DNA of 64,000 nt from Gammaproteobacteria bacterium (GTDB lineage: Bacteria > Pseudomonadota > Gammaproteobacteria > Steroidobacterales > Steroidobacteraceae), in assembly GCA_030038755.1 (NCBI GenBank), contig JASHSK010000221.1, forward strand, positions 1,104-65,103, read 5' to 3'. The notes under the pieces were generated by a model. The model saw nothing but the letters and a program-made list of their open reading frames with translations, was not told the origin of the DNA and made no database searches. The position numbers were made by a program, and so were the translations under genes. This document shows, in pieces, positions 1 to 41,916 of this stretch; within the stretch, counting starts at the first letter, position 1, and each line of letters starts with the position of its first letter.

Positions 1-4296
<4,296 letters not shown>

Positions 4297-7336: not shown

Positions 7337-7471
7337 TGACCCCTTGTTTGGTTTCGATCACCGGCGGTGACAAGCCTGTTGGTGGAAAACTGCCGCTGCC
7401 CGTCAGACTGCTGAACAGCTACGGGAAAGACTTGAGGCAGGCCCCCGCTGAAAATGATTAAGAATGCTATC

Positions 7472-7593
7472 GGGGGCGGATCACGTCAAGCCGCAGTCCG
7501 GCGCCTTGACGCGAGCCGCGCACTGGCTTTACGCTAACAGATCGCTCGGGGCAAATCGGTTCGCTGCGGCGAGCGGTCCCGCCCCCATCCGCC
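7472..7593 (+). promoter_or_regulatory. candidate structured 5' leader (nested stems) ahead of MetE-like gene at 7622
   Basis: Outer pairing ggcggat (7475-7481) / atccgcc (7587-7593) encloses three stems: cgtcaag (7484-7490)/cttgacg (7505-7511), agcc/ggct (7514-7528), and a 9-bp stem gatcgctcg (7540-7548)/cgagcggtc (7570-7578). No family assignment. Confidence 0.3.
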
Positions 7594-7621
7594 ATCGAAT
7601 TCAGTCCCCGGGGAGACTCTC

Positions 7622-11566: not shown

Positions 11567-11589
11567 CCGCTGGATGCGCGTATCAGGCT

Positions 11590-12642
11590 CTATGGCGCGG
11601 GCGCCAGGATCAGCAGATTGGGGCCCGCATGCCGTGCGATCACGGGCAGGGAGGACTGTACGGCCTCGGCGAACACTTCGGTGTCGCCGAGATCGAAGAC
11701 ACCGCTGATGCGCTCGGCCGCCAATGAAGCATCCCCGATCTGCAGCTGCAGACTCGAGTAACGATTCAGCCGCCGTAAGGCGTCCCCCAGGGGAGTATCC
11801 TTGAAGATGATCTTGCCCTGACGCCACGCGATGGCGGCGTCGATGTCGGCATTATGCAGGACCCGTGGCTGCTCCCCCGGCCCTACGTCGAGTTCCTCAC
11901 CGGCCGCCAGATCCAGCATACGGTCGGCACGCAGTGGGTGCAACGGTGCAACTGCGGGCGCGCGGGCACCTGCGCCTGTGCCTGCGGCGGCGGCCGGCGC
12001 CGGCGCCGGCGCGGGGACGGCGACCGTGACCTTGCCGTCGACCATGTCGATCTTCATGCGCTTGTCGAGATATTCGACGTTGAAGGAAGTGCCCACCGCG
12101 GTGATCGTATTGGCGCCCACCTCCACGAGGAATGGGCGCCGCGGATCGTGGGCCACCATGAACTGTGCCTGTCCCTCGAGCAGGTTCACCACACGCGCAT
12201 CCCGCGTCATCCTCACGCGCAGCGACGTTGCCGCATCGAGCGCGATCCGCGATCGATCCGTCAGCTCCACGACCCGCTGCTCGCCGATTCCGGTCTGGTA
12301 GCCGACGCGCCCGACGCTGTGCAGTCCGAGCCAGAGACCTGCCGCGCACAGCATGACCAGCGCGGCGATGGCCCACGGTCGCCGCAGCACGTGGTCGTGA
12401 CGCAGTGCGTCCCGGCGCAGCGCAATGAGCTCGGGCGAGGCCGAATGCGTGCCCACCGCGCGCCAGGCCCGACGCACGATGCTGAACGCGCGCGCGTGGG
12501 CCGGGTCGGCCAGCCACGCCGTCAATTTCTCCTCATCGTGAGACGTCCACTGGTCCGATTTCGCCCGGATGAGGGCCGAGGCGGCCTGCTCCTCGAGGCT
12601 CGCGGACACAGCGTCCGGTGCGGGTTTATCTTCCGGATCCAT
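11590..12642 (-). CDS. FecR-family anti-sigma factor / transmembrane sensor
   Basis: N-terminal anti-sigma region (AASALIRAKSDQWTSHDEEKLTAWLADPAHARAF), a single TM (WAIAALVMLCAAGLWLGL) and a FecR periplasmic domain (IALDAATSLRV...LLEGQAQFMV). It sits between the ECF sigma and the STN-receptor. Confidence 0.85.
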   Translation of the reverse strand: MDPEDKPAPDAVSASLEEQAASALIRAKSDQWTSHDEEKLTAWLADPAHARAFSIVRRAWRAVGTHSASPELIALRRDALRHDHVLRRPWAIAALVMLCAAGLWLGLHSVGRVGYQTGIGEQRVVELTDRSRIALDAATSLRVRMTRDARVVNLLEGQAQFMVAHDPRRPFLVEVGANTITAVGTSFNVEYLDKRMKIDMVDGKVTVAVPAPAPAPAAAAGTGAGARAPAVAPLHPLRADRMLDLAAGEELDVGPGEQPRVLHNADIDAAIAWRQGKIIFKDTPLGDALRRLNRYSSLQLQIGDASLAAERISGVFDLGDTEVFAEAVQSSLPVIARHAGPNLLILAPAP

Positions 12643-13153
12643 CGTTATCCATCCGCCGAGCCAAATGGGCCAATGCCCGGGCGAGGTGCTGACCGACCGC
12701 GCTCACGGAGATGCCCATCAGCTGCGCGATGTCCGCCTGCTTCATGTTTTCCAGCCGGTACAGCACAAAGATCTCCCGGGTACGCTGGCCAAGCTCGCGC
12801 AGCGCGCTCACGATTCTTTCCAGCTCCTGTCTGCCAGAGAGTACGCGCTCAGGCGATTTTTCCTCAGCCAGGCCTGGCGTCTGCTCGCTGCAATCCACGA
12901 CCGTGCCGTGCGTCAGCTTGCGGCGGCCACGGTCGCGCCAGCAGTTGATCGCAATCCGGAAGATGTAGCTTCTGGCCTGCTCGGCCGAAGCCCATTGCGA
13001 GTGGGTCAGCGCGCGCAGTATGACGTCCTGCGCGAGGTCCTCCGCCTCCGCAGGGTCGCCGCAGCGGCGCAGGAAGAAGGCGATCAGCGCCGGTCGCAGC
13101 GGCACGATCAGTGCCGCCGCATCGACGCAGCGTGGGGTGGCTTGGGGCGGCAT
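12626..13153 (-). CDS. ECF (FecI-like) RNA polymerase sigma-70 factor
   Basis: Region 2 DPAEAEDLAQDVILRAL..IFRIAINCWRD and region 4 REIFVLYRLENMKQADIAQLMGISVSAVGQHLARA. The ORF is open to 13372, but M at 13153 gives a typical ~175 aa ECF. It overlaps the FecR start by 17 nt. Confidence 0.85.
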   Translation of the reverse strand: MPPQATPRCVDAAALIVPLRPALIAFFLRRCGDPAEAEDLAQDVILRALTHSQWASAEQARSYIFRIAINCWRDRGRRKLTHGTVVDCSEQTPGLAEEKSPERVLSGRQELERIVSALRELGQRTREIFVLYRLENMKQADIAQLMGISVSAVGQHLARALAHLARRMDNDGSGR

Positions 13154-13200
13154 GCGCGATGTTGGCACTACTGCGCCGCCAAGGTTGCACAACCGGTGCC

Positions 13201-13228
13201 GTGCTTGCAACGTCGTGCTTGCAACGTG
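13201..13228. repeat. 14-bp tandem direct repeat (gtgcttgcaacgtc / gtgcttgcaacgtg) in sigma/receptor divergent intergenic region
   Basis: Read directly; 13 of 14 positions identical. A related ggttgcacaacc dyad lies at 13183-13194. Confidence 0.85.
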
Positions 13229-13334
13229 GGAGGGATGTGGATTTCGATGAGTCACGCGTATTGGACTAGATAAGAGTGTCGCGTTTTTGCTGAGCGGCGA
13301 AGGGTTCCTCTTCACCGGCCGCGCAAAGACCCTA

Positions 13335-13368
13335 GAAGAAGTCGGACTCAGGAAGAAGTCGGATTCAG
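13335..13368. repeat. 17-bp tandem direct repeat (gaagaagtcggactcag / gaagaagtcggattcag)
   Basis: Read directly; 16 of 17 identical. It ends 16 nt before the ATG at 13385. Confidence 0.85.
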
Positions 13369-13384
13369 GCACGGGGAGCTTCGC

Positions 13385-15949
13385 ATGATCTCAAAATCCT
13401 GGAATTTCCCAAGATCCGGTGCTGACTTGCGTGCACTCGCGCCGATCGGCGACAGACTCGTGATCGACGGCGGGCGAGCGGTGTTGCGGTCACGCCGCGC
13501 CAGCGTCGCGGCGACGCTACTGATGGGACTGCTGGCGGCCGGACTTCCCGCAGGCGCCTGGGCCCAGAGCGGGCAGGGCGCCCAGAGTGCCCAGAGCGCC
13601 CAGAGCCCCCAAAGCGCCCAAAGCCCCCAAAGTGCCCAGACTGCCCAGAGTCCGCCGCCGAGCTCGACGCTGGTCGCCCAGGCGGGCGCGGGAACTCAGA
13701 CGGAGGCGGGGGACCAGGCGCAGACGACGGACCAGGGGACGGGATTGCAGGAGGTCGTCGTCACAGCCACGCGGCGCAGCGAGCAGGAGCAGAACGTGCC
13801 GATGAGCATCTCGGTGATCACTCCCCAGCAGATGCAACAAAATGAAATCAAGACTTTCGACGACTTTGCGGTGGAAGTCCCGAATCTGAGCTTCAATTAC
13901 AGCCAGGGCGGCAGCGTCAACGACCGCGGCGTGGCGATCCGCGGCATCGAGGGTCCCAATACCACCGCGTTCTACCTCGATGACCTGCCGATGGATCTGT
14001 CGCTCGACCCGCGCGTGGTTGACCTGGACCACATCGAGGTGTTGGAGGGCCCGCAGGGCACGCTCTATGGCGCACGCTCCATGGGCGGCACCATCCGCGA
14101 GATCACCACGGCCCCGGACCTGACCAAGTTCTCCGGTGTCGCCGATGCCCAAGGTATGAAGGCTGACGGCGGCAACGTCGGTTACGAGACCTACCTCACG
14201 TTGAACATTCCGATCGTCACGGACAGCCTGGCGGTGCGGTTGACGCCCTACCGCGGAGAAGATCCGGGCTGGATCACCCGCGAATGGCCCGTGCCCGGCT
14301 ATGCGGCGGGCGTGGCCAGTGACCTCGAGCCTAAATGGTGGAACACCACCACGTATGAGTGCAATTGCACGCCCGGCGAGCAGCAGGATACGGCCGAGCA
14401 GCAATACGAAGGGCTGAACCTGCAAGCACTCTGGAAGCCGAGCGCCAACCTCGCCATCCGGCCGAAGTTCCTCTACCAGAAGCTGGACTCCAACGGTCTG
14501 CCGCTCGGCAATTACAGTGCGAACAATACGACCAACTACATGCACTTCGATATCCCCGAGGGTATCTGGGACCGCTGGATGTTCTATGGCGGCACCATCG
14601 ATTACACGACCCCCATTGGCACCATCACCTCGGCGACCTCGGGGCTCGACCGGCACAACCGCGACACCGAGGACGCCTCCGAGTTCACCTCCTCCAGCTA
14701 CACCACGCCACTGCTGGCCTCGCCGATCGACGTGATCGGCAACGAGCAGGACATCACCGAGGAGATACGCTTCGCCTCCTCATGGAAAGGTCCGCTGCAG
14801 GCCACCGCCGGTTACTACTACGAGAGGAGCGAGCAATGGTCGGCCTTCAATCAATATATTGCCGGCTTCGCCGACGCACCCACCCTCTTCGGCATTAGCT
14901 ACGGCACCAACAACACGGCAGAGTTGTGGAGCCCGACCAATACCTGGGAGAAGGCATACTACGGACAGCTCATCTACCACATCACTCCGAAGTGGTCCGT
15001 CACCTGGGGCGAGCGCTACTCGTGGGATATCTATGAAACGAGCGGCAAATTGTGGGGAGCGATCGCGTACCCCACCATAAGCTACGCTGATTCCACCTAC
15101 AACCTCGCCTCTACCGAAAACGATCACATCCTCACCCCACGGTACGTGCTGCAGTATCAGCCAGACCCGAACCTGAACCTGTATGCCGATGCGGCGAAGG
15201 GCTTCCGTCCGGGCGGCGGGCAGGTGCCGCCGGGACTGAATCTGTGCGCGGCGGATTACGCGGCCGATCACCTCACGCCTTCAGAGCTGTCGCACTTCGG
15301 GCCGGACTAGGTTTGGGAGTATGAGATCGGCGAGAAGGCGTTCCTGGACGACCGGCGCGTTTCGATCGACAGCTCGGTTTTCTATATCAACTGGACCGAC
15401 ATTCAGGAGTACCTCATTTTCGTTTGTGGTGAGGGCGGGACGATCAACTCCGGCAAGGCGGTGAGCAAGGGCGCGGAGGTCGACTTTTCAGCGATCCCGT
15501 TCCACGGTATGAATCTCAATGGCGGTATCGGCTATGACTACGCGCGCATCACCGAGCCGGGAGCGCTGCTTGCCTATCCCCCGCCGGGCTCGCCGATCCA
15601 GCAGGTCGCACCGCTGACGGCCAATGCGGCCGCCGACTATACGCATCCACTGACGCCCAGCATGAGCTGGGATGCTCACCTGGACTGGAGCTACACCGCA
15701 CATCGCTATTCCGCGGCCAACACCATCTACCCGGTGCTCCCGCGAGTGGTGCCGGCGTACTTCCTGATCAACAGCAAGTTCAGCATCCTGAGAGGTCCGG
15801 GCGAGTATTCCGTGTACGTCAGGAACATGGGCGGCATACATCCCAATCTCAGCGATGAGCTGTCAAACGCTGCGGAGGATCCCGGGCGACCGCGCTGGAC
15901 CGAGGGACCTCCCGCGGAGTACGGCATCGAGGCGCACTACACCTTTTGA
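13385..15949 (+). pseudogene. TonB-dependent receptor (paralogue of 8831-11566, no STN domain) interrupted by one in-frame TAG at 15308-15310
   Basis: The two track ORFs (13385-15310 and 15461-15949) are in the same frame, with no other stop between them. The TAG replaces the Trp of GPDWVW in the paralogue (GPD*VWEYEIGEK). Plug and barrel motifs and the terminal ..AHYTF are intact. The true start may be the GTG at 13481. Confidence 0.8.
13581..13652 (+). repeat. 9-bp in-frame tandem repeat x8 (cccagagyg / cccaaagyg) encoding (S/P)AQ repeats in receptor N-terminal linker
   Basis: Read directly. It translates to the eight-unit run AQSAQSAQSPQSAQSPQSAQTAQS just after the predicted signal peptide. 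Confidence 0.9.
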
Positions 15950-15959
15950 AGCCGCGTTC

Positions 15960-15999
15960 AACCCCACCGCCGCGGCGGCATGACTGCGGCGGTGGGGTT
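15960..15999 (+). terminator. perfect 14-bp stem hairpin after the interrupted receptor (terminator/attenuator candidate)
   Basis: aaccccaccgccgc - 12-nt loop - gcggcggtggggtt, starting 11 nt after the TGA at 15947-15949. Confidence 0.5.
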
Positions 16000-16034
16000 C
16001 GCATGGCCTCCGTCCCCGGTCCTGATAACCTAGT

Positions 16035-16865
16035 GTGATGATGAGGCCGAACGCACTGAGTCGCACCCTGGCGCTCGCGCTGCCGCTGCTGTGCGCGGCC
16101 CCCTATGCGCAGGCGCAGCGCTCGCGCCCGGCGTCTGCGCCGGCAGCAGCGAATCGCGGCGCCACGCAGCCTGCACCCACGGCCCGTGCGCAGGCGCCAT
16201 TCGATCCGACTGGCTACTGGGTATCGCTGGTCACGGAGAACTGGCGCTACCGCATGGTGCTGCCGCAGCGGGGCGACTACGCCGGCATTCCCATCAATCC
16301 CAAGGGCAAGCAGTTCGCCGACACCTGGCAGGCAGCCGCCGACATCGCGGCCGGCAGGCAATGCGAGGCTTACGGCGCCGCCAATCTGATGCAGATACCC
16401 GAGCGGCTGCACATCGGCTGGCAGGATGATCAGACCCTGCGCGTGGATAGCGATGCCGGGATGCAGACGCGACTGCTGCACTTCGGGTCTGCACCTTCCG
16501 GCGACGCGGCCAGTCCTGCCAGCCTGCAGGGCTATTCGCAGGCGCGATGGCAGCTGTTCGCGCTGGTGAACACATTCGGTGCCCCTGCGGGTGGGGCGGG
16601 TGCCAGGCGCTATGGATCGCTCATCGTGAGCACCGATCACCTGCTGCCGGGACTGTTGCGCAAGAACGGCGTGCCCTATGGCGCGCGGACGAGGGTGATC
16701 GAGTACTGGCAGCTCAACACGGTGGTCCACGATCGATGGCTGATGATCAGTACCGAGGTGCGCGATCGCGAATACCTCGATGGGCCATACGTTTACGACT
16801 CGATCTTCCAGCCGGAGCCCGACGGTTCCAGGTGGAGTCCGAGTGCCTGCTCACTGAGCTCATGA
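16035..16865 (+). CDS. secreted protein of unknown function, family A (copy 1)
   Basis: Signal peptide LALALPLLCAAPYAQA and a Pro/Ala linker. Conserved blocks are shared with 19006-19857 (PFDPTGYWVSL.T.NW.YRMV, QCEAYGAA, PERLHI.WQDD.TLRV, LPGLLRKNGVPYGA, PYVYDSIFQ.EPDGSRW.PS.CSL). No family recognised. Confidence 0.7.
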   Translation: MMMRPNALSRTLALALPLLCAAPYAQAQRSRPASAPAAANRGATQPAPTARAQAPFDPTGYWVSLVTENWRYRMVLPQRGDYAGIPINPKGKQFADTWQAAADIAAGRQCEAYGAANLMQIPERLHIGWQDDQTLRVDSDAGMQTRLLHFGSAPSGDAASPASLQGYSQARWQLFALVNTFGAPAGGAGARRYGSLIVSTDHLLPGLLRKNGVPYGARTRVIEYWQLNTVVHDRWLMISTEVRDREYLDGPYVYDSIFQPEPDGSRWSPSACSLSS

Positions 16866-17842
16866 GCCGGTCGATGCCATCGGGAAGCCTGCGGAGCGTC
16901 CTGACGAGAGGCGGCTCGCTCATGGTTGCGGCGATGAGCCTGGCGATGCTCCTGTATGCCGCTGCTGCGCCGGCGCAGGTGGATCTGTCGGGAAACTGGG
17001 TCGCGGAGAGCATGGAAGACCCGGTGGAGCACACCGATGGCGGCTTTCCGGACATGTTTGCCGGGCTGCCGGTCAACGATAACGGCCGCCAGGCCGGCCT
17101 GACCGCTCCCGGAGACGAGATGCAGGAGCTCAACCGCGAGTGTCAGCCCTGGTCTGCGCACTACCTGCTGATCGGCCCATGGGGCGGGCGCTTCGCCGCC
17201 GTCCGCGATACCGAGGGGCACATCACCGCCTGGACCCTGAGTTCCCCTGCCTACGATCGGTTGCCGATGACGATCTGGATGGACGGGCGCAGCGCTCCCC
17301 CGCCGCTGGCGCGGCACACCTGGGAGGGCTTTTCGACCGGCCGCTGGGAGGGGGCCACGCTGGTGGTCAGTACTTCGCTGCTGAAGGACGGCTATCTGGA
17401 GGATAACGGGCTGCCGTCGAGCAACCAGGAGACCGATAGCTACTTTCTCACGCGCTACGGCGATGAGTTGACGATCATGGCCGTCATCCGCGATCCGGTA
17501 TACCTGGAGGCGCCCCTGGTACTGGGTCGAACGCTCAAGCTGCTCCCGGCCGGCAGTGTGCTGGAAGACCCGATCCTGTACTGCATGCCGGCGGAGACGA
17601 TCGCCGGTTTCTCGGATGGCTACCACAGCGCGATCGAGCTGCCGCCCAAGGAGGCGCAGCAGCAGGCCTATCTGAGCGGGCTTTACCATCTGCCGCTGAT
17701 CGCGACGCACGGCGGAGCGCAGACCATGTATCCGGAGTTCCAAAGGAAACTCACGGGCTATATGCCGCCGTCGAAATACTGCTCGCTATATTGCGGTGAG
17801 GCGGAGACCTTGCCGAGCGCGCAGAATATCCAGAGCCGCTAG
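16862..17842 (+). CDS. secreted protein of unknown function, family B (copy 1)
   Basis: The ATG at 16862 overlaps the upstream stop (ATGA). Signal peptide ..AMLLYAAAAPAQV. Blocks are shared with 19912-20859 and 20907-21848 (AQVDLSGNW, DMFAG.PVN..GRQAG, C.PW..HY.L.GPWGGRFAAV, W.G.STG.WEG.TLVVSTS.LKD.YLE.NGLP.SNQETD, DPVYLEAP, DPILYCMPAE, YCSLYC). The track ORF start at 16547 is an upstream out-of-gene extension. Confidence 0.7.
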   Translation: MSRSMPSGSLRSVLTRGGSLMVAAMSLAMLLYAAAAPAQVDLSGNWVAESMEDPVEHTDGGFPDMFAGLPVNDNGRQAGLTAPGDEMQELNRECQPWSAHYLLIGPWGGRFAAVRDTEGHITAWTLSSPAYDRLPMTIWMDGRSAPPPLARHTWEGFSTGRWEGATLVVSTSLLKDGYLEDNGLPSSNQETDSYFLTRYGDELTIMAVIRDPVYLEAPLVLGRTLKLLPAGSVLEDPILYCMPAETIAGFSDGYHSAIELPPKEAQQQAYLSGLYHLPLIATHGGAQTMYPEFQRKLTGYMPPSKYCSLYCGEAETLPSAQNIQSR

Positions 17843-17911
17843 AACGCGTAGTATCCACGAGGACTGCGCATTTCGGTGCTTCGTGCGTATTGTGAGTGGG
17901 GGAGACAAGCC

Positions 17912-19009
17912 ATGAGTCAACGGGAGCACGTGCGGTCGTGGGTGCCGCTGCTGGCGGTGGGGATCACCGCGGCCTTGAGCGCGGGGGCGGGCACGGCGCT
18001 GGCCGCGCAGGATGACGCATCCCCCCCACCGCAGGCGAATACCGCCGGCGCCGTCAGCGTCGTGCCTCTCAGAGACGGGCTCTACATGCTGGCGGTGGAC
18101 GGCGTCAACGTCGTCCTCGAGACCGGAACATTTGGCTCGATCCTGGTCGACACGGGCCCGGCATCGGGCTCGCAGGCGCTGCTGGATCAGGTCAGGCAGC
18201 TGACGGACAAGCCGATTCGCTTCATCATCGATACGAGCGCGGATCCGGAGCTGATCGGGGGCAACGCCGCCGTCGCGGGGGCGGGGCAGAGTCTGGCGAC
18301 GACGGACACCTTTGACGCCATCGAAGTCAATGGCAACACCAGCAAGGTTGACCTGCCCGGTCAGGGGAACTCGGCGACCGTCATTGCGCGACAGAACGTA
18401 CTGACCCAGATGCTCAGTCAGCCCGGGGCGAATTACGGAAGCGCCGCGCTGCCGAGCGATACATTTTCGCGTCACCAGTTCAACTTCTTCATGAACGGCA
18501 CTCCCATCGCGGTGGTCGAGCTGCCCGGTGGACACAGCGGTAGCGACGCGGCGGTGCGCTTCGATCGGCCCGACGTCGTGGTGGCCGGCGCGGTGTTCGA
18601 TCAGACGCGATTCCCGGTGATCGATCTTGCCAACGGCGGCAGCATCCAGGGCGAGATCGACGCGCTGGACCAGATCGCCAACACGCTGGCCTATGCGCAT
18701 GTGCCTGTTCTGGAGGACAGCGGAGCCACGCTGATCATTCCGGTGCGCGGGCCGGTGAGTGATGAGGACGATCTGGTGACCTATCGCGATATGGTGGGTA
18801 CGGTGCGCGATCGCATCGAGTACTACATCGAGCAGGGCAGGACGCTGCAGCAGATCCACGCGGCCAATCCCGCCCGCGGCTACATCTCGCGTTACGGCAG
18901 CGACAGCGGCAGCTGGACGACCAACGACTTCGTCGATGCCGTCTACCGGAGTCTGATGGCCGATCGCAAGGCGCACCGCGGCGGGCGGCCGGCGCAGCAG
19001 CAGGAATGA
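17912..19009 (+). CDS. secreted MBL-fold (metallo-beta-lactamase superfamily)-like protein with degenerate metal-binding motifs
   Basis: Signal peptide WVPLLAVGITAALSAGAGTALAA. The layout is typical of periplasmic MBL-fold hydrolases (LYML..GVNVVLETG..SILVDTG...KPIRFII-DTSADPEL-IGGN...LPGGHSGSDA..VVAGAVF...IPVRGP). However the HxHxDH position reads SADPEL and later ligand positions are also substituted. Confidence 0.6.
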   Translation: MSQREHVRSWVPLLAVGITAALSAGAGTALAAQDDASPPPQANTAGAVSVVPLRDGLYMLAVDGVNVVLETGTFGSILVDTGPASGSQALLDQVRQLTDKPIRFIIDTSADPELIGGNAAVAGAGQSLATTDTFDAIEVNGNTSKVDLPGQGNSATVIARQNVLTQMLSQPGANYGSAALPSDTFSRHQFNFFMNGTPIAVVELPGGHSGSDAAVRFDRPDVVVAGAVFDQTRFPVIDLANGGSIQGEIDALDQIANTLAYAHVPVLEDSGATLIIPVRGPVSDEDDLVTYRDMVGTVRDRIEYYIEQGRTLQQIHAANPARGYISRYGSDSGSWTTNDFVDAVYRSLMADRKAHRGGRPAQQQE

Positions 19010-19857
19010 TGGCGATGGATACGCGACGTGAAGGTCAGTGGCGGCGGTGCGCCGCTCGCCGTGGCGGCAGGGCGCTCGTGTGCGGTCTGTCGGCCGCGCT
19101 GCTGGCGGTGTGCCAGGCTCCCGGCGTGCAGGCTCAGCAGCCGCGCGCTGCGACCAAGCCGCCGCCGACCGCGCGGGAGCAGGCGCCGTTCGATCCGACC
19201 GGATACTGGGTGTCGCTGATCACGCAAAACTGGCAGTACCGCATGGTCGTGCCGGGACCGGGCGAGTACGCCGACATCCCGATGAATCCGCAGGCGAGGA
19301 AGGCCGCCGACGCGTGGCGCGCGGCTGCCGCCACGGCGGCCGATCAGCAATGCGAGGCGTATGGTGCCGCCGTGATCATGCGCAACCCGGAGCGCCTGCA
19401 TATCAGCTGGCAGGACGATGAGACGCTGCGGGTGCAGATCGATGAAGGTATGCAGACGCGGTTGCTGCACTTCAAGCCGGCGTCGTCGGCAACGCCGCAG
19501 GCGCCGAGCCTGCAGGGCTATTCGACGGCGCACTGGATCGTCGATTCGACCGTCAACACCTTCGGAGCCCCCGTGCGGACGGACACGGGACAGCAGCACT
19601 ATGGGTCGCTGCGTGTGGACACGAACGACATGTTGCCCGGTCTGCTGCGCAAGAACGGCGTGCCCTATGGCGCCGACACGCAAATGAGCGAGTACTGGGA
19701 TCTGCGTGCGCTGTCATCCACGCAGCAATGGATCACGGTCAGCACCAAGGTGGAGGATCCGCAGTATCTGTTCCAGCCGTACGTATACGACTCGATCTTT
19801 CAGAAGGAGCCCGACGGCTCCAGGTGGGATCCGAGTCCCTGTTCTCTGACCTCGTGA
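19006..19857 (+). CDS. secreted protein of unknown function, family A (copy 2)
   Basis: The ATG overlaps the MBL-like stop (ATGA). Signal-like LVCGLSAALLAVCQAPGVQA. Same conserved blocks as 16035-16865. Confidence 0.7.
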   Translation: MMAMDTRREGQWRRCAARRGGRALVCGLSAALLAVCQAPGVQAQQPRAATKPPPTAREQAPFDPTGYWVSLITQNWQYRMVVPGPGEYADIPMNPQARKAADAWRAAAATAADQQCEAYGAAVIMRNPERLHISWQDDETLRVQIDEGMQTRLLHFKPASSATPQAPSLQGYSTAHWIVDSTVNTFGAPVRTDTGQQHYGSLRVDTNDMLPGLLRKNGVPYGADTQMSEYWDLRALSSTQQWITVSTKVEDPQYLFQPYVYDSIFQKEPDGSRWDPSPCSLTS

Positions 19858-19911
19858 GACCGCGGAGATCGACGCAGTACCCATGCAACCCGGAAGTCCG
19901 CGGAGCCGCCG

Positions 19912-20859
19912 ATGAAAATTTCCCCATGTGCGCTTGCGACACTGGCCGGGGCGGGGCTGATGTACGCCGCCACAGCCCCTGCGCAGGTCGATCTGTCGGG
20001 TCAGTGGATATTGGAGAGCACGCAGGATGCGGTCAAATACGATGAGGGCCCGCTGACCGATATGTTTGCCGGCATTCCGGTGAACGAAGCGGGTCGTCAG
20101 GCCGGCATCACCTATCCCGGCGACGAGCAGCAGGAGCTCAACCGCCAGTGCCAGCCCTGGCCGACGCATTATTTTCTGATGGGACCCTGGGGCGGCCGGT
20201 TTGCCGCCGTCCATGATGCGGACGGGCGGCTGGTGGCCTGGACCGTCAGCTCTCCCGCCTACGACCGGCTGGCGATTACGATCTGGATGAACGGCCATGC
20301 GCCTCCGCCACCGTTGGCGCTGCACACCTTTGGCGGCTTCAACACCGGCAAATGGGAGGGTTCGACCCTGGTCGTGTCCACTTCGATGCTGAAGGATGCC
20401 TACCTGGAGCGCAACGGCCTGCCCAACAGCAACCAGGAGACCGACACCTTCTTCTTCACGCGCCATGGGGATGAGATGACGTTGATGGCCGTCATCGACG
20501 ATCCGGTGTATCTGGAAGCTCCCTGGGTCCTCGCGCGCACCCTCAAACTGCTTTCGGACGGCAGTCAGCTCAGTGATCCCATCCTGTACTGCATGCCGGC
20601 GGAAGTTCTCGCGGGGTTTACCGACGGTTACCACAGCGCCATCGAGTTGCCGCCGCGCGAGGCGCAGCAGCTGGCCTTCATGAAGAACCGCTACGATCTG
20701 CCGCTCGAGGCGACGCTCGGCGGGGCGCAGACCATGTACCCCGAGTTTGCGAAGAAACTGGACAAGGTATACAAGCCCCCCACCAAGTACTGCTCACTGT
20801 ACTGCACCGTCCAGGGTCATCTGCTGCCGACCGGGCCGGTCCATATACAGAGCCGGTAG
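19912..20859 (+). CDS. secreted protein of unknown function, family B (copy 2)
   Basis: Signal peptide MKISPCALATLAGAGLMYAATAPAQV. Family B blocks present. Near-identical over long runs to the next gene. Confidence 0.7.
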   Translation: MKISPCALATLAGAGLMYAATAPAQVDLSGQWILESTQDAVKYDEGPLTDMFAGIPVNEAGRQAGITYPGDEQQELNRQCQPWPTHYFLMGPWGGRFAAVHDADGRLVAWTVSSPAYDRLAITIWMNGHAPPPPLALHTFGGFNTGKWEGSTLVVSTSMLKDAYLERNGLPNSNQETDTFFFTRHGDEMTLMAVIDDPVYLEAPWVLARTLKLLSDGSQLSDPILYCMPAEVLAGFTDGYHSAIELPPREAQQLAFMKNRYDLPLEATLGGAQTMYPEFAKKLDKVYKPPTKYCSLYCTVQGHLLPTGPVHIQSR

Positions 20860-20906
20860 GCTCGCCGCCGTGAGAACGGCGGCGTTGGAATCTGCGGGGG
20901 TTGCCG

Positions 20907-21848
20907 ATGAAGACGCAACCATGCGTGCTTGCGATGCTGGCCTTCTCGGCGGGGTTGCTGTACGCGGCCGCCGCCGCCGCCCAGGTCGATCTGTCGGGTA
21001 ACTGGGCACTGGAAAGCACGCAGGATGCGCTCAAATACGGCGAAGGTCCCCTGACCGACATGTTTGCCGGCATTCCTCTGAACGACCAGGGTCGACAGGC
21101 CGGCATCACCTACCCCGGGGATGAGGGCCAGGAGCTCAACCGCCAGTGCCAGCCCTGGCCGACACATTATTTTCTGATGGGACCCTGGGGCGGCCGGTTT
21201 GCCGCCGTGCATGACGCGGACGGGCGGCTCTTGGCCTGGACCGTCAGCTCTCCCGCCTACGACCGGCTGGCGATTACGATCTGGATGGATGGCCGGGCAT
21301 CTCCGCCGGCACTGGCGCTGCACACCTTTGGCGGCTTCAACACCGGCAAATGGGAGGGCTCGACCCTGGTCGTGTCCACCTCGATGCTGAAGGATGCCTA
21401 TCTGGAGCGCAACGGCCTGCCCAACAGCAACCAGGAGACCGACACCTTCTTCTTCACGCGCCATGGGGATGAGATGACGTTGATGGGCGTCATCGATGAT
21501 CCGGTGTATCTGGAGGCCCCGTGGGTGCTGGCCCGGACTCTCAAGCTGATCTCGGCCGGCAGTGTGGTCTCCGACCCGATCCTCTACTGCATGCCCGCCG
21601 AGGTGCTTGCCGGGTTCACCGACGGCTACCACAGCGCCATCGAGCTGCCGCCGCGCGAAGCGCAACAGCTGGCATTCATGCCAAAGCGCTACAATCTGCC
21701 CGCCATCGCGACGCTGGGCGGCGCGCAGACCATGTACCCGGAGTTTGCAAAAAAAATCGATCGTGAATACCAGCCGCCCACTGCCTACTGTTCACTCTAC
21801 TGCACGCGCCCAATGCGGGTGCAGCCTCCCAGCATTCAAAGCCGCTAG
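20907..21848 (+). CDS. secreted protein of unknown function, family B (copy 3; tandem duplicate of copy 2)
   Basis: The ATG at 20907 (MKTQPCVLAMLAF..) parallels the copy 2 start; the track ORF begins at a TTG at 20901. Long identical runs with copy 2, e.g. QELNRQCQPWPTHYFLMGPWGGRFAAVHDADGRL. Confidence 0.7.
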   Translation: MKTQPCVLAMLAFSAGLLYAAAAAAQVDLSGNWALESTQDALKYGEGPLTDMFAGIPLNDQGRQAGITYPGDEGQELNRQCQPWPTHYFLMGPWGGRFAAVHDADGRLLAWTVSSPAYDRLAITIWMDGRASPPALALHTFGGFNTGKWEGSTLVVSTSMLKDAYLERNGLPNSNQETDTFFFTRHGDEMTLMGVIDDPVYLEAPWVLARTLKLISAGSVVSDPILYCMPAEVLAGFTDGYHSAIELPPREAQQLAFMPKRYNLPAIATLGGAQTMYPEFAKKIDREYQPPTAYCSLYCTRPMRVQPPSIQSR

Positions 21849-21869
21849 ATCGCGGGCACCGGGACCCGT

Positions 21870-23195
21870 ATGGCGCTGAGCCCCGAAGCACTGCAGTCCT
21901 GGTGGATGCCGTTCACGGCGAACCGCTACTTCAAGGCGCACCCGCGCCTGATCGTCGAAGCTCAAGGGGCCTACTACACGCTGGCCGATGGCCGCCGCGT
22001 GTTCGACTGCCTCTCGGGAATGTGGTGTACGCCGCTGGGCCACGCCCACCCGGGCGTCGTGCAGGCAGTGCAGCGTCAGGTGCAGAAGCTCGATTTCAGC
22101 CCGACTTTTCAGATCGGACATCCGGACGCGTTCGAGCTTGCCGCCCGGATCGCAGCTCTGGCGGGTCGCGAGCAGGACCGCGTGTTCTTCGTCAACTCCG
22201 GATCCGAGGCGGTCGATACCGCTCTGAAAGTCGCGATCGCCTATCACCGCGCGCGCGGCGAGGCAACGCGCACCCGTCTGATCGGCCGCGAGCGGGCGTA
22301 TCACGGCGTGGGCCTTGGCGGCCTGTCGGTCGGCGGCATCGGCGCCAACCGTAAAATGTTCACGTCGCTGATGCCGAGCGGCATCGACCATCTGCCACAC
22401 ACGTATTCACCGCGCGATATGGCCTTCACGCGCGGTCAACCTGACTGGGGGAAGCATCTTGCCGATGAGCTCGAGCGTCTGGTCGCCCTGCACGATGCCT
22501 CTACGATCGCGGCCGTCATCGTGGAGCCGGTGCAGGGCTCCACGGGTGTCATCGTCCCGCCGCGCGGCTACCTCGAGCGGCTGCGTGAAATCTGCACGCG
22601 CCACGGCATCCTGCTGATCTTCGACGAGGTGATCACGGGTCTGGGCCGGCTCGGCAGACCCTTCGCCGCGCAGTACTTCGGCGTGCGCCCCGATCTGATC
22701 ACGTTTGCCAAGGCGATCACCAACGGTGTCGTGCCGATGGGTGGCGTGCTGGTGAGCGCGGACATTTACGAAGCGTTCATGACCGGGCCCCCGCACGCGA
22801 TCGAGTTCTTCCACGGCCATACCTACTCGGGCCACCCGCTGGCCGTGGCGGCAGCGCATGCGTCGCTCGATGCGCTCACCGGGGAGGGTCTGATCGAGCG
22901 TGCGGCCGCGCTCGCGCCGCTGCTGGAGCGCGCCGCGCACGGTCTGCGTGGGGAGCCCCATGTGATCGACATCCGCAATATCGGACTGACTGCGGCCGTA
23001 GAGCTCGCGCCGTACACCGGTCAGCCGGGCGTCGTGGCGCTGCAGGTGTTCGAGCGCGCACTGTCCGAGGGGCTGCTGGTGCGCTACGCGGGGGACGTGA
23101 TCGAGCTCGCGCCGCCGTTCATCTCCACGGAGCAGCAGATCGAGTCGATGATCGAAGCGCTGCGACGCTGCCTGCGGGCGGTCCCTGCTGCCTGA
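21870..23195 (+). CDS. class III (omega-amino acid:pyruvate type) PLP aminotransferase
   Basis: WMPFTANR..F...PR.I..A.G.Y N-terminus typical of omega-transaminases. Also SGSEAVDTALK, LLIFDEVITGLGRLG and THGHTYSGHPLA. It starts 21 nt after the upstream stop. Confidence 0.88.
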   Translation: MALSPEALQSWWMPFTANRYFKAHPRLIVEAQGAYYTLADGRRVFDCLSGMWCTPLGHAHPGVVQAVQRQVQKLDFSPTFQIGHPDAFELAARIAALAGREQDRVFFVNSGSEAVDTALKVAIAYHRARGEATRTRLIGRERAYHGVGLGGLSVGGIGANRKMFTSLMPSGIDHLPHTYSPRDMAFTRGQPDWGKHLADELERLVALHDASTIAAVIVEPVQGSTGVIVPPRGYLERLREICTRHGILLIFDEVITGLGRLGRPFAAQYFGVRPDLITFAKAITNGVVPMGGVLVSADIYEAFMTGPPHAIEFFHGHTYSGHPLAVAAAHASLDALTGEGLIERAAALAPLLERAAHGLRGEPHVIDIRNIGLTAAVELAPYTGQPGVVALQVFERALSEGLLVRYAGDVIELAPPFISTEQQIESMIEALRRCLRAVPAA

Positions 23196-23203
23196 GATCG
23201 GCC

Positions 23204-24487
23204 TCAGCGCTGCCTCGCAACGTCCGCCGGCGTTACGGTGCCGCCACGATTGCTCCAGCTGCCTCGGACATAGTTGCTGACCGCGGCGATCTCGGCGTCG
23301 CTCAGGTCGTTGCGGTAGGGCTTCATGGTTTCCCATCCGCCCAGCTTGATGTCCTGCGGCTGGTCCGGTCCATACAGGATGATATTGATCAGCGATGCCG
23401 GGTCACCGGCCTGCACCACCGCGCTTGCCGACAGCGGCGGTGCGCTGAACAGCCCGCCGCGGCCCGAGGACATGTGACATTCCTCGCAATTGTCGCTGTA
23501 GAGTCTGGCGCCGGCCGTCACCGCGGCCTTCGGGGGCGCCGCCTCGCCCGACCGCTGTGGCGGCAGGCTCTTGAGATATACCGCCATGGCATGCACGTCA
23601 TCGTCGCTGAGGTTCCTGAGGCTCCTGTCGACCACGTCATTCATGGGCCCGAAAACTCCGGCGCGCAGCGAAAACCCGGTTTTCAGATACCCGGCGAGAT
23701 TGTCCACTGACCAGGCCGCAAGCCCGGTCCTGGACGAGGTGAGATTGACCGCCGACCAGCGGCGGGTCTGTCCGCCAGGGACCTGCTCGTCAAAAGTGCC
23801 GCCGGAGTAAGCCCGGCTCGTCTGTTCGGCCATGAAGAAATTGCGCGGGCTATGACAGGCATCACAATGGCCGAGACCTTCGACCAGGTAGGCGCCGCGG
23901 TTCCATTGCCCCGACTGTCTGGGGTCAGGCTCGAAGCGGCCGGATTTGAAGAACAGTGGGTTCCAGAACGCCATGGCCCAGCGCTGCCTGAAGAGCAGGC
24001 TATCCGCGGGAGGCGCATAACGCACCGGCTGCAGCGTGCGCAGATAGGCGTAGATCGCGGCCACGTCTGCGTCGCTGACCCTGGTGAATGAAGTGTACGG
24101 AAAGGCAGGAAAGAGATGGCGCCCGCCGGGCGCGATGCCGTCGTGCATGGCGGTGCGGAAGTCGTCGAGGCTCCACGCGCCGATCCCGGTTTGATCGTCG
24201 GGTGTGATGTTGGACGAATAAATCGTGCCCAGCTTGGTGATGACGGGCACGCCGCCGGAGAATGCGGCACCCCCGGGCCGTGTGTGGCAGCTCGCGCAGT
24301 CACCCGCAGCGGCCAGATATTTCCCCTGCTGGATCGTCGAATCGGCAGTGCGTGGAGCGGCGGATCCCGCGCCCGATGCCTGCGCGCCGCCTTGAGCTCG
24401 ACACGCCCGTCCGATCAGCAGTCCAATCACGGTGCCCGCGACAAGCAGCGCCGGGACGCAAAAAAAAGCGGAGCGGCTTTTCTTCAT
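23204..24487 (-). CDS. triheme c-type cytochrome (cytochrome subunit type of membrane dehydrogenases)
   Basis: Signal/anchor MKKSRSAFFCVPALLVAGTVIGLL. Three CxxCH motifs (CASCH, CDACH, CEECH) in three cytochrome c domains, ~427 aa. Confidence 0.85.
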   Translation of the reverse strand: MKKSRSAFFCVPALLVAGTVIGLLIGRACRAQGGAQASGAGSAAPRTADSTIQQGKYLAAAGDCASCHTRPGGAAFSGGVPVITKLGTIYSSNITPDDQTGIGAWSLDDFRTAMHDGIAPGGRHLFPAFPYTSFTRVSDADVAAIYAYLRTLQPVRYAPPADSLLFRQRWAMAFWNPLFFKSGRFEPDPRQSGQWNRGAYLVEGLGHCDACHSPRNFFMAEQTSRAYSGGTFDEQVPGGQTRRWSAVNLTSSRTGLAAWSVDNLAGYLKTGFSLRAGVFGPMNDVVDRSLRNLSDDDVHAMAVYLKSLPPQRSGEAAPPKAAVTAGARLYSDNCEECHMSSGRGGLFSAPPLSASAVVQAGDPASLINIILYGPDQPQDIKLGGWETMKPYRNDLSDAEIAAVSNYVRGSWSNRGGTVTPADVARQR

Positions 24488-25325: not shown

Positions 25326-26930
25326 TTGTTTCATCAACTATTGACCCCCGTTCACGGCAATCTGCCGCTGTCGTTTCTCGTGGCGGTGATTCCGATCGCA
25401 ACCGTGCTGGTTCTATTGGGGATTCTCAAGCGGCCCGCGTGGCAGTCTTCTCTGGCGGGTCTCGCGGTCGCGTTCGGGGTCGCGATCGGAGTGTGGCGCT
25501 TCCCCGTCAACCTCGCCATCGAGAGCACCATCGCGGGTGTGGCCTTTGCGCTCTGGCCGATCATGTGGATCGTGTTCTCGGCCCTCGTGCTTTACAACGT
25601 CGCCATCATCTCCGGCCGATTCGACGCTTTCCGGCGCTGGGTCATCGAGCATCTGCCGAATGATCGGCGCATCATCCTCGTCGTCATCGGCTATTGCTTC
25701 GGCGCGCTGCTCGAAGGGGTCACCGGTTTCGGCGCGCCGGTGGCCATCATCAGCTCGCTGCTGATCATGCTCGGCTTCGACGCCCTCGATGCAATCGTCT
25801 ATGCGCTGATATTCAATACCGCACCGGTGGCGTTCGGCTCCATCGGGGTACCGGTCACCACGCTCGCCGGCGTCACGGGACTGCCGGATACGGTACTGGG
25901 CGCGATGATCGGCCGGCAGCTGCCGTTTCTTGCGTTCCTGCTGCCCTTCTATGCCATCGCGATGTATGGCGGGTGGCGCTCGGTGCGTGCGATCTGGCCG
26001 GTGCTGCTGGTCGCGGGCACGACCGGCGCGCTCGCTCAGTTCGTGACGGCAAATTACATCAGCTACCAGTTGACGAATATCGTGTCCTCGCTCGTTTCGC
26101 TGGCGCTGACGGTCGCTTTTCTGAAGGTGTGGAAGCCCGCTCACGATCCCGCCTATGCCGTAGCCGAGGCGCCGGCCACTCTCGAGAAGGCACATGCCCA
26201 CATTCCGGTATGGCAGGGGTGGATTCCGTGGCTGATCGTCGCCGTGGTCGTGACCTTGTGGACGACGTGGAAATTCGCCGCCTTTCATCAGATGAACCTG
26301 CCGTGGGCGGGTCTGCATGATGCCGTATTCATTACGCTGTACAAAAAGCCCTATGCCGCGGTGTTCAACTTCCAGCCGCTCACCACCGGGACCGCGATAC
26401 TGATATCGAGCATACTGACGGGGCTGGCGGTCGGAGTCGGCGTCAACGGCTACATACAGGCCATGGCCCGGACCTGGAAGCAGATCCGCCTGCCAACCTT
26501 CACGGTGACGGCGATCGTCGGCCTTGCCTTCCTGATGAACTATTCGGGCATCGCCTACACGCTCGGTCTCGGTGTGGCGTCCGTGGGCGCTCTGTTTCCG
26601 CTGTTGTCCGCCTTCCTCGGTTGGCTCGCGGTCTTTCTGTCGGGAAGCGACTCCTCGGGCAATGCGCTGTTCGGCAATCTGCAGGTCGTCGCGGCCCGAC
26701 AGCTCAATCTCAGCCCCATCCTCATCGCGGCCACCAATTCTTCGGGCGGAGTACTGGGTAAGATGATCTCGCCGCAAAACATCGCGACCGGCTGCGCGAC
26801 CAGCAATCTGACGGGCCATGAAGGCGCGATGTTTGCGCGCACGTTCCTGCACAGCGTCTTTCTCACCGTACTGCTCGGCTGTCTCGTCTGGCTGCAGCAA
26901 TACGTGTGGCCGTGGATGATCGCGAGCTAG
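25326..26930 (+). CDS. L-lactate/glycolate permease family (LctP) transporter
   Basis: 534 aa, many TM segments. N-terminal LSFLVAVIPI..VLLG.LKRPAW and the GFGAPVAI, SGSDSSGNALFG and NSSGGVLGKMISPQNIA blocks are characteristic of the LctP family. Apparent TTG start. Confidence 0.88.
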   Translation: MFHQLLTPVHGNLPLSFLVAVIPIATVLVLLGILKRPAWQSSLAGLAVAFGVAIGVWRFPVNLAIESTIAGVAFALWPIMWIVFSALVLYNVAIISGRFDAFRRWVIEHLPNDRRIILVVIGYCFGALLEGVTGFGAPVAIISSLLIMLGFDALDAIVYALIFNTAPVAFGSIGVPVTTLAGVTGLPDTVLGAMIGRQLPFLAFLLPFYAIAMYGGWRSVRAIWPVLLVAGTTGALAQFVTANYISYQLTNIVSSLVSLALTVAFLKVWKPAHDPAYAVAEAPATLEKAHAHIPVWQGWIPWLIVAVVVTLWTTWKFAAFHQMNLPWAGLHDAVFITLYKKPYAAVFNFQPLTTGTAILISSILTGLAVGVGVNGYIQAMARTWKQIRLPTFTVTAIVGLAFLMNYSGIAYTLGLGVASVGALFPLLSAFLGWLAVFLSGSDSSGNALFGNLQVVAARQLNLSPILIAATNSSGGVLGKMISPQNIATGCATSNLTGHEGAMFARTFLHSVFLTVLLGCLVWLQQYVWPWMIAS

Positions 26931-27040: not shown

Positions 27041-27502
27041 ATGAAGCGACTCTCCATATTGAGCTGCTCGTGCGCGCTGATGCTCACGGCGGCGCCGGTT
27101 CTGGCATCGGATCAGGACGTGATCCAATACCGGGAGGCCATCATGAATACACTCAATGAGGAGTCCGCAGCGCTCGGCCAGATCGCCTCGGGCGTCATCC
27201 CGGACGACAGTCTGGTGGCGCATATGAACATACTGGCGCTGGCCGCATCGGCTGGCGTCAAGGCGTTCCAGCCCAAAGTTCCCGGCGGTAAGGCGAAGCC
27301 CGATGTGTGGGCCAACTGGGCGGACTTCTCCAAGCGCATGAACGATTTCGCGCAAATGACGGCGGCGGGCGCCAAGGTCGCGAAGGATCAAGGCAAGGAC
27401 GCGGCCCTGGTGGCGCTGATCAATTACGCGGATGCCTGCAAGGGCTGTCACGATATGTATCGGCAGAATCAGAAGGGAGGCGGAGACAGCTCCGCCCAAT
27501 AG
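27041..27502 (+). CDS. cytochrome c' (class II, four-helix-bundle) family protein
   Basis: Signal peptide, ~150 aa, and a single haem motif near the C-terminus (ADACKGCHDMYRQ). Also VIQYREAIMN and KPDVWANWADF blocks. Confidence 0.8.
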   Translation: MKRLSILSCSCALMLTAAPVLASDQDVIQYREAIMNTLNEESAALGQIASGVIPDDSLVAHMNILALAASAGVKAFQPKVPGGKAKPDVWANWADFSKRMNDFAQMTAAGAKVAKDQGKDAALVALINYADACKGCHDMYRQNQKGGGDSSAQ

Positions 27503-32612: not shown

Positions 32613-32659
32613 TCGTTCCGGGACACCGGGAATTCAGGCGGGTTTGGAGAGAGTGGCCA

Positions 32660-39349: not shown

Positions 39350-39448
39350 AGTCTCCGCGAGCCCGACAGACGCGAGCCTGGCAGAAGCTCCGCAGACGAT
39401 GCGCGCAAAACCGGTTAGAATTGCCGCTTCCCCCTACGGAGTCCAGCC

Positions 39449-40690: not shown

Positions 40691-40868
40691 GCGCGCGAGC
40701 GGTCATTGCGGTGGCGCCCCGTGCCGCTGCGGCCGGGCGCGCCCGCCACCGGTGCCGGCGGTCAGCTGAAGGTTCAATGATAATGGATGTGCTATCCTTC
40801 GCGTTCCCAGCTGCCGGCGCCGCCGCGTCGCGCTGCGAGAATTCAAACCCCGGTACGGAGTGATCGCC

Positions 40869-41897: not shown

Positions 41898-41916
41898 AAG
41901 CCGCAGGAGACGAACG

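Follow-up and report, generated by a model that had tools for sequence, protein, structure and literature searches.

A row of six genes at positions 16035-21848 of the window (the whole 64,000-nucleotide (nt) stretch of Steroidobacteraceae DNA analysed here) encodes exported proteins of three types, M, A and B. In the periplasm of uncultured soil bacteria, these proteins probably handle aromatic or nitrogen-containing nutrients after import. M is related to the metallo-beta-lactamases (MBLs), and A and B, whose predicted fold is a barrel, are remotely related to each other. Outside the iron, B12 and glycan systems, the route of organic substrates across the periplasm after TonB-dependent import is largely unexplained. 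The M-A-B triad is a conserved, multi-copy and unannotated set of proteins of abundant uncultured soil lineages, found in aromatic or amine catabolic settings. The first-pass annotation of the window had proposed the row as a candidate undescribed periplasmic system next to a TonB-dependent receptor (TBDR), and this proposal is supported by the finding that the families are both unannotated and conserved.

A compact row of genes for exported proteins

The row had been read as six same-strand genes in the order A-B-MBL-A'-B'-B'', all with signal-peptide-like N-termini and followed after 21 nt by an omega-aminotransferase gene. The coordinates of the open reading frames (ORFs) and the profile match of the aminotransferase bear out this layout (aa, amino acids; dN/dS, ratio of nonsynonymous to synonymous substitution rates; pLDDT, predicted local distance difference test):

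16035-16865, + strand: A1 (A), exported protein of family A, predicted calycin-like barrel; 276 aa, match to the A-family hidden Markov model (HMM), signal peptide, dN/dS 0.24
16862-17842, + strand: B1 (B), exported protein of family B, predicted calycin-like barrel with a Cys-containing helical C-terminal extension; 326 aa, dN/dS 0.16
17912-19009, + strand: M, exported MBL-fold protein with a degenerate metal site; 365 aa, NCBIfam and PDB profile matches, dN/dS 0.22
19006-19857, + strand: A2 (A'), predicted family A barrel; 283 aa, AlphaFold2 pLDDT 81.5, Foldseek matches to avidins
19912-20859, + strand: B2 (B'), predicted family B barrel; 315 aa, AlphaFold2 pLDDT 77, Foldseek matches to fatty acid-binding proteins (FABPs), SAHS and UnaG
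20901-21848, + strand: B3 (B''), predicted family B barrel, recent duplicate of B2; 315 aa, 86% identical to B2, dN/dS 0.09
21870-23195, + strand: AptA-type omega-aminotransferase, cytoplasmic; NF052567, 670 bits against a cutoff of 500

The genes are tightly spaced. ATGA stop/start overlaps were read directly from the sequence at 16862 (A1/B1) and 19006 (M/A2), and the remaining gaps are 69 nt (B1-M), 54 nt (A2-B2), 41 nt (B2-B3) and 21 nt (B3-aminotransferase), in agreement with the overlaps and spacings first described. M has an alternative GTG start at 17876, which would give a protein of 377 aa. The spacing suggests that the row is co-transcribed. Scanning of 12600-23400 predicted no sigma-70 promoter and found terminator-like sites at background level only, and an Rfam scan of the whole window gave no match.

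When the window was compared with an orthologous locus of another metagenome-assembled genome (MAG), here called L024, dN/dS was 0.09-0.24 across all six genes. The six genes are thus functional and not chance ORFs, and all of them, M included, are under purifying selection. Each of the six products starts with a hydrophobic segment followed by an AxA-type site, as expected for a Sec-type signal peptide, and the same pattern was present in 85-90% of the database homologues of each family. Lipobox and Tat motifs were looked for in all six products and none was found, which rules out A and B as lipoproteins or Tat substrates.

A and B belong to one superfamily with a predicted calycin-like fold

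All of the sequence motifs quoted for A and B in the first-pass annotation are present. A1 and A2 are 60% identical, B1 is 67% identical to both B2 and B3, and identity between B2 and B3 reaches 86%. The five proteins had been described as paralogues that fall into two families. They are indeed all homologous, and A and B are related too: they can be aligned with each other by BLASTP (25% identity, E 1e-7) and much more strongly by hhalign (99.8% probability, E 8e-28, about 195 columns). On these profile comparisons, A and B are distant homologues within one calycin-like superfamily rather than two unrelated families.

The inability to assign a characterised function to either family held up as well. 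Scans of the A and B proteins against Pfam and NCBIfam returned nothing at E<=0.1, so no well-characterised family was matched. The Pfam models for YceI, lipocalin, FABP and avidin did not match A or B, and the ABC, TRAP and TTT solute-binding families had no Pfam or NCBIfam match for A, B or M. Sequence-profile searches of the PDB gave no match for B and only two chance-level integrases for A (E about 0.5), and no literature on the two families was found. A search of 1.84 billion representative sequences (E<=1e-3) placed 2,765 clusters at 50% identity in the A superfamily, and every named member is annotated 'hypothetical protein'.

The structure prediction and Foldseek search that had been proposed were run on A2 and B2, using AlphaFold2 with family alignments. 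The models (mean pLDDT 81.5 for A2 and 77 for B2) both consist of an N-terminal strand, a helical insert and eight more antiparallel strands, nine strands in total. Against the PDB, B2 matched FABPs, SAHS, UnaG and avidins (best E 3.5e-3, probability up to 0.99), and A2 matched streptavidin and avidins. The top matches were all calycins, but they were weak (E 3.5e-3 to 0.1, TM about 0.5 on the target), and neither protein had a Foldseek match in the PDB at E<=1e-3. These models suggest, with moderate confidence, that A and B are exported FABP/avidin-like (calycin) barrels.

Proteins of family B continue at the C-terminus for about 90 aa more, in a helical region that has conserved cysteines. 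In family A a Cys pair, Cys116 and Cys279 in A2, is invariant and links the helical insert to the post-barrel segment; the B cysteines, in the motifs QC.PW and YCMPAE, fall in regions that hhalign aligns to the A pair. The signal peptides and the invariant Cys pair fit the oxidising environment of the periplasm. A loop with the sequence GLLRKNGVP or LERNGLPxS is extremely conserved in both families, and the invariant positions are held mainly by Trp, Tyr, Arg, Asn and Gly, not by clusters of His, Cys, Asp or Glu.

The metal site of M, an MBL-fold protein, is degenerate

The M-family profile matched MBLs in the PDB, with 8d2z at E 3.5e-12 and B2 and B3 lactamases also found. Its matches to the NCBIfam MBL models were weak (E 1e-9 to 1e-2), the profile homology spans the N-terminal half, and more distant members of the family carry PF00753. 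By profile homology, M is related to the alpha-beta/beta-alpha MBL fold.

The label pseudo-MBL given to the window protein proved apt. It has SADPEL at the position of the HxHxDH motif, Ala at D221 and Arg at H263, and it keeps the His equivalent to H196. Across the family, only this His and two Asp residues are invariant, and the H121 position is occupied by Leu in 105 of 149 sequences. The Bryobacteraceae clade keeps D-x-D-H, H, D and H, and the canonical HSHGDH is retained in some B::M fusion proteins, one of which (P0114) also keeps H196, GD and GHG. M was also considered as a quinoprotein-relay/SoxH-type hydrolase, and this was ruled out by its score against TIGR04558 (37.5 bits against a cutoff of 300). 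The residue pattern makes the window M likely a pseudoenzyme; because most of the metal ligands are lost, it is most likely a non-catalytic scaffold or binding subunit.

M, A and B are conserved as a triad

HMMs of A, B and M were applied to 28 genome or MAG loci (loci outside the window are given as L and a number). The cassette, first described as A-B-MBL, is conserved, but its repeated unit is M-A-B(-B), so that the window is read as an A-B pair followed by M-A-B-B. Two loci, L024 and L029, have exactly the gene order of the window, together with the TBDR and the aminotransferase. Among the genome loci, M lies upstream in 19 of the 28 A-B pairs. Many genomes and metagenomes carry the triad, which was found in over 100 loci. 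It is also present in a locus of the acidobacterial family Bryobacteraceae (L026; HMM E-values 1e-142, 4e-89 and 1e-99). Steroidobacteraceae MAGs carry several copies per genome, and single MAGs such as JOPF060 and SMAG_U15047 carry seven or more cassettes. The profile search of genome contigs found MAGs only (Steroidobacteraceae, Castellaniella and Acetobacteraceae) and no cultured isolate.

When JGI metagenomes were searched with only the A profile, more than 586 loci came up, of which 80 were kept. The order M-A-B was present in the majority of the kept loci, and B-M-A and A-B-M also occurred; the three orders are rotations of one cyclic order. For metagenome A genes with at least 2.5 kb of sequence on both sides, M was found within 2.5 kb in 20 of 20 cases and B in 19 of 20. 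The triad is therefore nearly obligate.

Two further lines of evidence link the partners. Natural fusions join B to M (B::M; P0106 and P0113-116), M to A (M::A; P0507) and B to A (B::A; P0368). The divergence of the three proteins is also mirrored across cassettes, with correlations of 0.86 for A versus B, 0.88 for M versus A and 0.93 for M versus B (Mantel p<=5e-4). Triad conservation, fusions and mirrored divergence together argue for joint action of the three proteins, probably in a physical complex.

The whole unit is duplicated head to tail in L045 (13.2 kb), where a TBDR-like barrel of 1099 aa, M, B and A occur twice. This is the clearest case of an outer-membrane barrel duplicating along with the triad. 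In one metagenome contig an M-A-B cassette lies directly downstream of rpoB-rpoC (L091:228-11595). The window also opens with rpoC (10-4296), but there, unlike in L091, other genes follow, which points to rearrangement of the neighbourhood among relatives.

TonB-dependent receptors and a divergent sigma factor unit adjoin the cassette

The row had been placed directly downstream of a TBDR gene and divergent from a unit of extracytoplasmic function (ECF) sigma factor, anti-sigma factor and transducer. The divergent unit was recovered in full on the minus strand, and the elements of the region are as follows (MFE, minimum free energy):

8831-11827, - strand: STN-domain TBDR, signal transducer; Pfam STN, Plug and TonB_dep_Rec_b-barrel
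11590-12642, - strand: FecR-type anti-sigma factor; Pfam FecR, E 5.9e-19
12626-13372, - strand: ECF sigma factor; Pfam Sigma70_r2 and Sigma70_r4_2
13201-13227, + strand: tandem 13-nt repeat, two copies of GTGCTTGCAACGT, in the divergent intergenic region between the sigma factor and TBDR genes; 2 matches against 0.09 expected by chance
13385-15949, + strand: operon-proximal TBDR heading the plus-strand row; Plug and barrel domains, 85 nt upstream of A1
15962-15997, + strand: 12-bp perfect GC-rich hairpin between the TBDR stop codon and A1; MFE -43.8 kcal/mol, z -3.1, no U-tract

The operon-proximal TBDR has the Plug and barrel domains expected from its first description, but its gene is interrupted by an in-frame TAG at 15308-15310 (codon 642). 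In the barrel it shares 71% identity with the STN receptor (over 756 aa) and 76% with the L024 orthologue, which is intact and 843 aa long. Both of these proteins have Trp (TGG) at the codon in question. The TAG is either a recent nonsense mutation, which would make the gene a pseudogene, or a consensus error of the MAG.

The ECF sigma factor, FecR and STN receptor are encoded together by adjacent minus-strand genes (8831-13372), and this arrangement suggests that they probably control the system of the window. The true start of the sigma factor is probably near 13153. The tandem repeat of GTGCTTGCAACGT is a candidate site for an ECF promoter or operator; a related element, GCAA...CGTCGTGCT, is retained in L024, so the repeat is partly conserved there. 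The position of the hairpin is conserved in L024 (about 5747-5786) and L029 (about 2736-2758), and its sequence is not. The hairpin may act as an intercistronic attenuator or stabiliser that sets the expression ratio of the TBDR and M-A-B.

Beyond the window, a TBDR adjoins the cassette in the same direction in L024, L006, L028 and L029, as it does in the window, and TBDRs are nearby in L016-L019 and L035. The HMM built from proteobacterial TBDRs missed the acidobacterial barrels, which were found with Pfam. These barrels, of the CarboxypepD_reg/Plug/OMP_b-brl_4 type, flank the triad in L026, L045 (twice), L067 and L071, and OMP_b-brl_4 is the commonest Pfam family among 119 unlabelled neighbours. 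In total, a TBDR or TBDR-like barrel is present in about one third of the long loci. The proposed link to a TonB receptor is thus recurrent across two phyla, but it is not obligatory.

Neighbouring genes point mostly to aromatic catabolism

An amine-containing substrate had been suggested from the adjacent aminotransferase. This suggestion stands for part of the loci: Aminotran_3 genes occur in the three orthologous loci (the aminotransferase has the same position in L024 and L029), and flavin amine oxidases adjoin M in L010 and L016 and are found in the same locus in L025. Most of the other loci, however, point to aromatic catabolism. The ring-cleavage and lower-pathway neighbours include LigAB, an intradiol dioxygenase, Fe-ADH (iron-type alcohol dehydrogenase), dienelactone hydrolase, CoA-transferase and CMD (carboxymuconolactone decarboxylase). 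The neighbours also include periplasmic oxidoreductases, namely pyrroloquinoline quinone (PQQ) dehydrogenases, a PCMH-like flavocytochrome c and a Tat-signal Zn-ADH. Operons of the form M-A-B-MFS-ABM, with genes of the major facilitator superfamily (MFS) and the ABM family, were found in L001, L006, L014 and L032, where a small secreted protein is encoded with the MFS and ABM genes directly downstream. In L006 the gene order is FecR, then A-B-TBDR-M-A-B-MFS-ABM.

Another set of recurrent neighbours is of a different type. A DUF6152 gene, whose product has a signal peptide and a mature N-terminus starting with His-His, lies just upstream of M or A in many cassettes (for example L019:7249-7716 on the minus strand, L016:5252-5719, L074, L098 and L099), and it is often trailed by two to four genes for DUF6644 membrane proteins. 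The DUF6644 genes share a row with genes for a cytochrome b561 and a long B-like protein in L003, L017 and L019; at other places in L017 and L019 there are DUF6152 genes as well. Both DUF6152 and DUF6644 genes are absent from the window. The association with DUF6152, DUF6644 and cytochrome b561 points to a larger system, possibly one that has a metal or redox component.

Genes of one-carbon metabolism were also observed near the cassettes. The window contains a one-carbon/methyl-cycle cluster at 51854-60128, with 5-formyltetrahydrofolate cyclo-ligase, formate-tetrahydrofolate ligase, FolD, S-adenosylhomocysteine hydrolase, a PfkB kinase, a gene resembling that for methylenetetrahydrofolate reductase, and an S-adenosylmethionine synthetase assigned on the basis of its SEGHPDK motif only. 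In L001, L006 and L014 the start of such a cluster lies directly downstream of the M-A-B-MFS-ABM cassette, and the S-adenosylhomocysteine hydrolase, S-adenosylmethionine-synthetase-like and PfkB genes are common to the window, L006 and L014. This proximity is either local synteny or a link to the demethylation of methoxylated substrates. MetE-like genes are near cassettes in five loci, and in the window two divergent short MetE-like (Meth_synt_2) genes at 6224-8806 adjoin the STN receptor.

A possible role in periplasmic ligand handling

The predicted fold, the export signals and the recurrent neighbours are consistent with a periplasmic complex that captures or processes a ligand between an outer-membrane receptor and inner-membrane uptake, a reading which we place a little short of an even chance. 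The ligand would be a small organic molecule, most likely aromatic or hydrophobic and possibly a carboxylate or an amine, and would enter through the adjacent TBDR. The A and B barrels would bind it in the periplasm together with M. A degenerate M would be a scaffold or binding partner, and an M whose metal site is intact would be a hydrolase; some lineages may also use the complex to modify the ligand. The ligand would then be handed to an inner-membrane carrier for catabolism in the cytoplasm, which would involve the aminotransferase in the window and the MFS protein and ABM monooxygenase in the sister loci. Induction would run through the divergent ECF sigma/FecR/STN-receptor unit.

Several observations weigh against this reading. 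Only about one third of the long loci have a detectable TBDR, and the association is possibly in part background because the genomes are TBDR-rich. In the window itself, the operon-proximal TBDR has its domains but not one intact reading frame. The fold assignment is drawn from weak Foldseek scores and from models with mean pLDDT of 77-82. Because calycin folds include enzymes, binding and catalysis are not separable. The partners DUF6152, DUF6644 and cytochrome b561 hint at redox or metal chemistry that ligand handling leaves unexplained.

The alternative that survives best, although we consider it unlikely, is that the triad is a periplasmic enzyme complex in which the barrels, or M proteins with an intact site, transform lignin- or humus-derived aromatics or amines before uptake. 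The metal-site residues kept in P0114 (canonical HSHGDH, H196, GD and GHG) and in the Bryobacteraceae clade (D-x-DH, H, D and H) would suit such an activity, as would the conserved polar residues on the barrel strands (including the invariant R152, Q150 and E229 in A), the extremely conserved GLLRKNGVP/LERNGLPxS loop, and the nearby PQQ dehydrogenases, PCMH-like flavocytochrome c and Tat-signal Zn-ADH. Ferulic acid decarboxylase and a dinoflagellate luciferase domain were also among the weaker fold matches. On the other hand, the window M and most Steroidobacteraceae M proteins are without the site-2 ligands (H121 replaced by Leu in 105 of 149), neither A nor B has a catalytic motif that could be named, and the best fold matches are binders, not enzymes.

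It appears improbable that the system serves metal acquisition, with the Fec-type signalling unit and TBDR importing a chelate of iron, haem, copper or a lanthanide and M-A-B binding or stripping the metal. The ECF sigma/FecR/STN-TBDR unit is the classic layout of ferric-citrate and siderophore signalling, the TBDRs score best against the siderophore-receptor model TIGR01783 (though far below its cutoff), and DUF6152 with its His-His terminus, DUF6644 and cytochrome b561 are recurrent partners. A ferritin-like gene and PQQ dehydrogenases are present in L024 and L026, ABM domains include haem-degrading enzymes, and HbpS-like neighbours occur. However, genomes carry at least seven cassettes amid carbon-catabolic genes with MFS carriers, and neither ABC importers nor periplasmic siderophore-binding proteins are among the neighbours. 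The make-up of the invariant positions in A and B (predominantly Trp, Tyr, Arg, Asn and Gly) also does not favour a metal, and M has lost metal ligands rather than gained them.

Least probable of all, in our estimate, is a module unrelated to import, for example in envelope maintenance or aromatic detoxification, whose adjacency to TBDRs is a by-product of TBDR-rich genomes: about two thirds of the long loci are without a TBDR in the available sequence, the contexts are heterogeneous (kinases, peptidases and even rpoBC) and the TBDR of the window is interrupted, but the triad is immediately adjacent to and co-directional with two TBDR architectures in two phyla, is embedded in TBDR...MFS operons and has OMP_b-brl_4 as its top neighbour family.

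Periplasmic ligand capture can be developed into a more specific model, which we offer tentatively and regard as rather doubtful in its full form. M-A-B would be a heteromeric periplasmic shuttle or processing complex, made of a pseudo-MBL scaffold and a pseudo-symmetric pair of FABP-like barrels and sometimes joined by a His-terminated DUF6152 protein and DUF6644 membrane proteins. It would carry poorly soluble lignin- or humus-derived aromatics or amines from TonB channels to inner-membrane carriers, with many substrate-specific cassettes per genome in uncultured soil Steroidobacteraceae and Acidobacteriota, and would be an aromatic counterpart of the polysaccharide utilisation loci. If the triad is the missing link across the periplasm, it would establish new protein families (an exported bacterial barrel of the FABP type and its pseudo-MBL partner), and its genes would be markers for substrate-specific uptake loci in soil carbon turnover and components for engineered import of lignin-derived compounds. 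Should the transport idea prove wrong, the obligate association of M, A and B and their fusions would still make the triad a clean target for structural and biochemical work.

Other genes of the window

A third TBDR gene at 36785-39349 starts a group (36785-44323) that also encodes a class-V aminotransferase resembling BhcA, an oxidoreductase of the Gfo/Idh/MocA type, a TIM-barrel 'metabolite traffic protein' of the EboE type (NF035939, 410 bits) and a protein similar to MetE. The Gfo-EboE-MetE-like trio directly adjoins an M-A-B cassette in L024 and L018. Convergent with the aminotransferase gene of the row is a minus-strand gene for a cytochrome c with at least two c-type domains (23204-24487), and a cytochrome c' is encoded at 27041-27502; a lactate permease gene lies between the cytochromes (25326-26930). 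At 30795-33991 a multi-domain protein (DUF1592/DUF1588/DUF1595/DUF1585/DUF1587) is followed by a DUF1552 (HXXSHH) protein, a pair that is common and uncharacterised.

Comparison with known systems

The calycins (FABP, SAHS, UnaG and avidin/streptavidin) are the best structural matches for A and B. They share the predicted up-and-down barrel of about nine strands, the helical insert after strand 1, which is FABP-like, and a G-x-W motif at strand 1. A and B differ from them in having no sequence match, about twice the size (260-320 aa), export and a conserved disulfide pair; in addition, B has the Cys tail of about 90 aa, and A and B are always paired and linked to an MBL-fold protein. For M, the relationship to the MBL superfamily (SoxH-related TIGR04558/9 and PDB 8d2z) consists of profile homology in the N-terminal half and the H196-equivalent His. 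M departs from that superfamily in its score (37 against 300 bits) and in SADPEL, D221 to Ala and H263 to Arg.

In Escherichia coli, the yceI-yceJ pair places YceI, a periplasmic lipocalin-fold protein, beside a cytochrome b561. YceI is a periplasmic calycin-like barrel, as A and B are predicted to be, and the long B-like protein of L003, L017 and L019 is likewise beside cytochrome b561. Unlike YceI, A and B have no YceI Pfam match, and their architecture and partners are different. The FecI/FecR/FecA system shares with the window an ECF sigma factor, FecR and an STN-TBDR that are divergent from a second, TBDR-led row; L024 has the same layout, and L006 has a TBDR and FecR in the same position with no sigma gene called. 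The difference lies in the neighbouring genes, which are M-A-B and an aminotransferase and not an ABC iron-citrate importer.

In Sphingobium sp. SYK-6, the inner-membrane MFS partner of the receptor DdvT is DdvK. DdvT itself is an outer-membrane TBDR that imports a lignin-derived aromatic dimer (PMC6874591). As in that system, the TBDR here would serve organic carbon and not iron, and the sister loci join TBDR, MFS and ring-cleavage genes, so that DdvT may be regarded as the closest precedent for TBDR-dependent uptake of organic carbon. The DdvT system differs in that no periplasmic component resembling M-A-B has been described for it, and the hosts here are uncultured Steroidobacteraceae and Acidobacteriota. 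Literature searches on DUF6152, on the combination of TBDR, MBL and lipocalin, on Steroidobacteraceae and lignin, and on PDB 8D2Z found nothing relevant, and no described TBDR system with an MBL-fold protein and paired calycin components was found.

The SusC/SusD systems have many co-diverging paralogous cassettes per genome, each with a TonB barrel, accessory binding proteins and catabolic genes; SusD itself is a lipoprotein on the cell surface and has a TPR-like fold. The M-A-B loci are similar in their multi-copy, co-diverging cassettes and in the outer-membrane TonB barrel with accessory proteins and catabolic genes. They differ in that M, A and B have no lipobox and are predicted to be periplasmic, and in that the neighbouring genes concern aromatics and amines, not glycans. 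The module would work most like the accessory binding proteins of TonB-dependent nutrient loci, and the locus described here would be a TBDR-linked uptake locus with new, unannotated component families.

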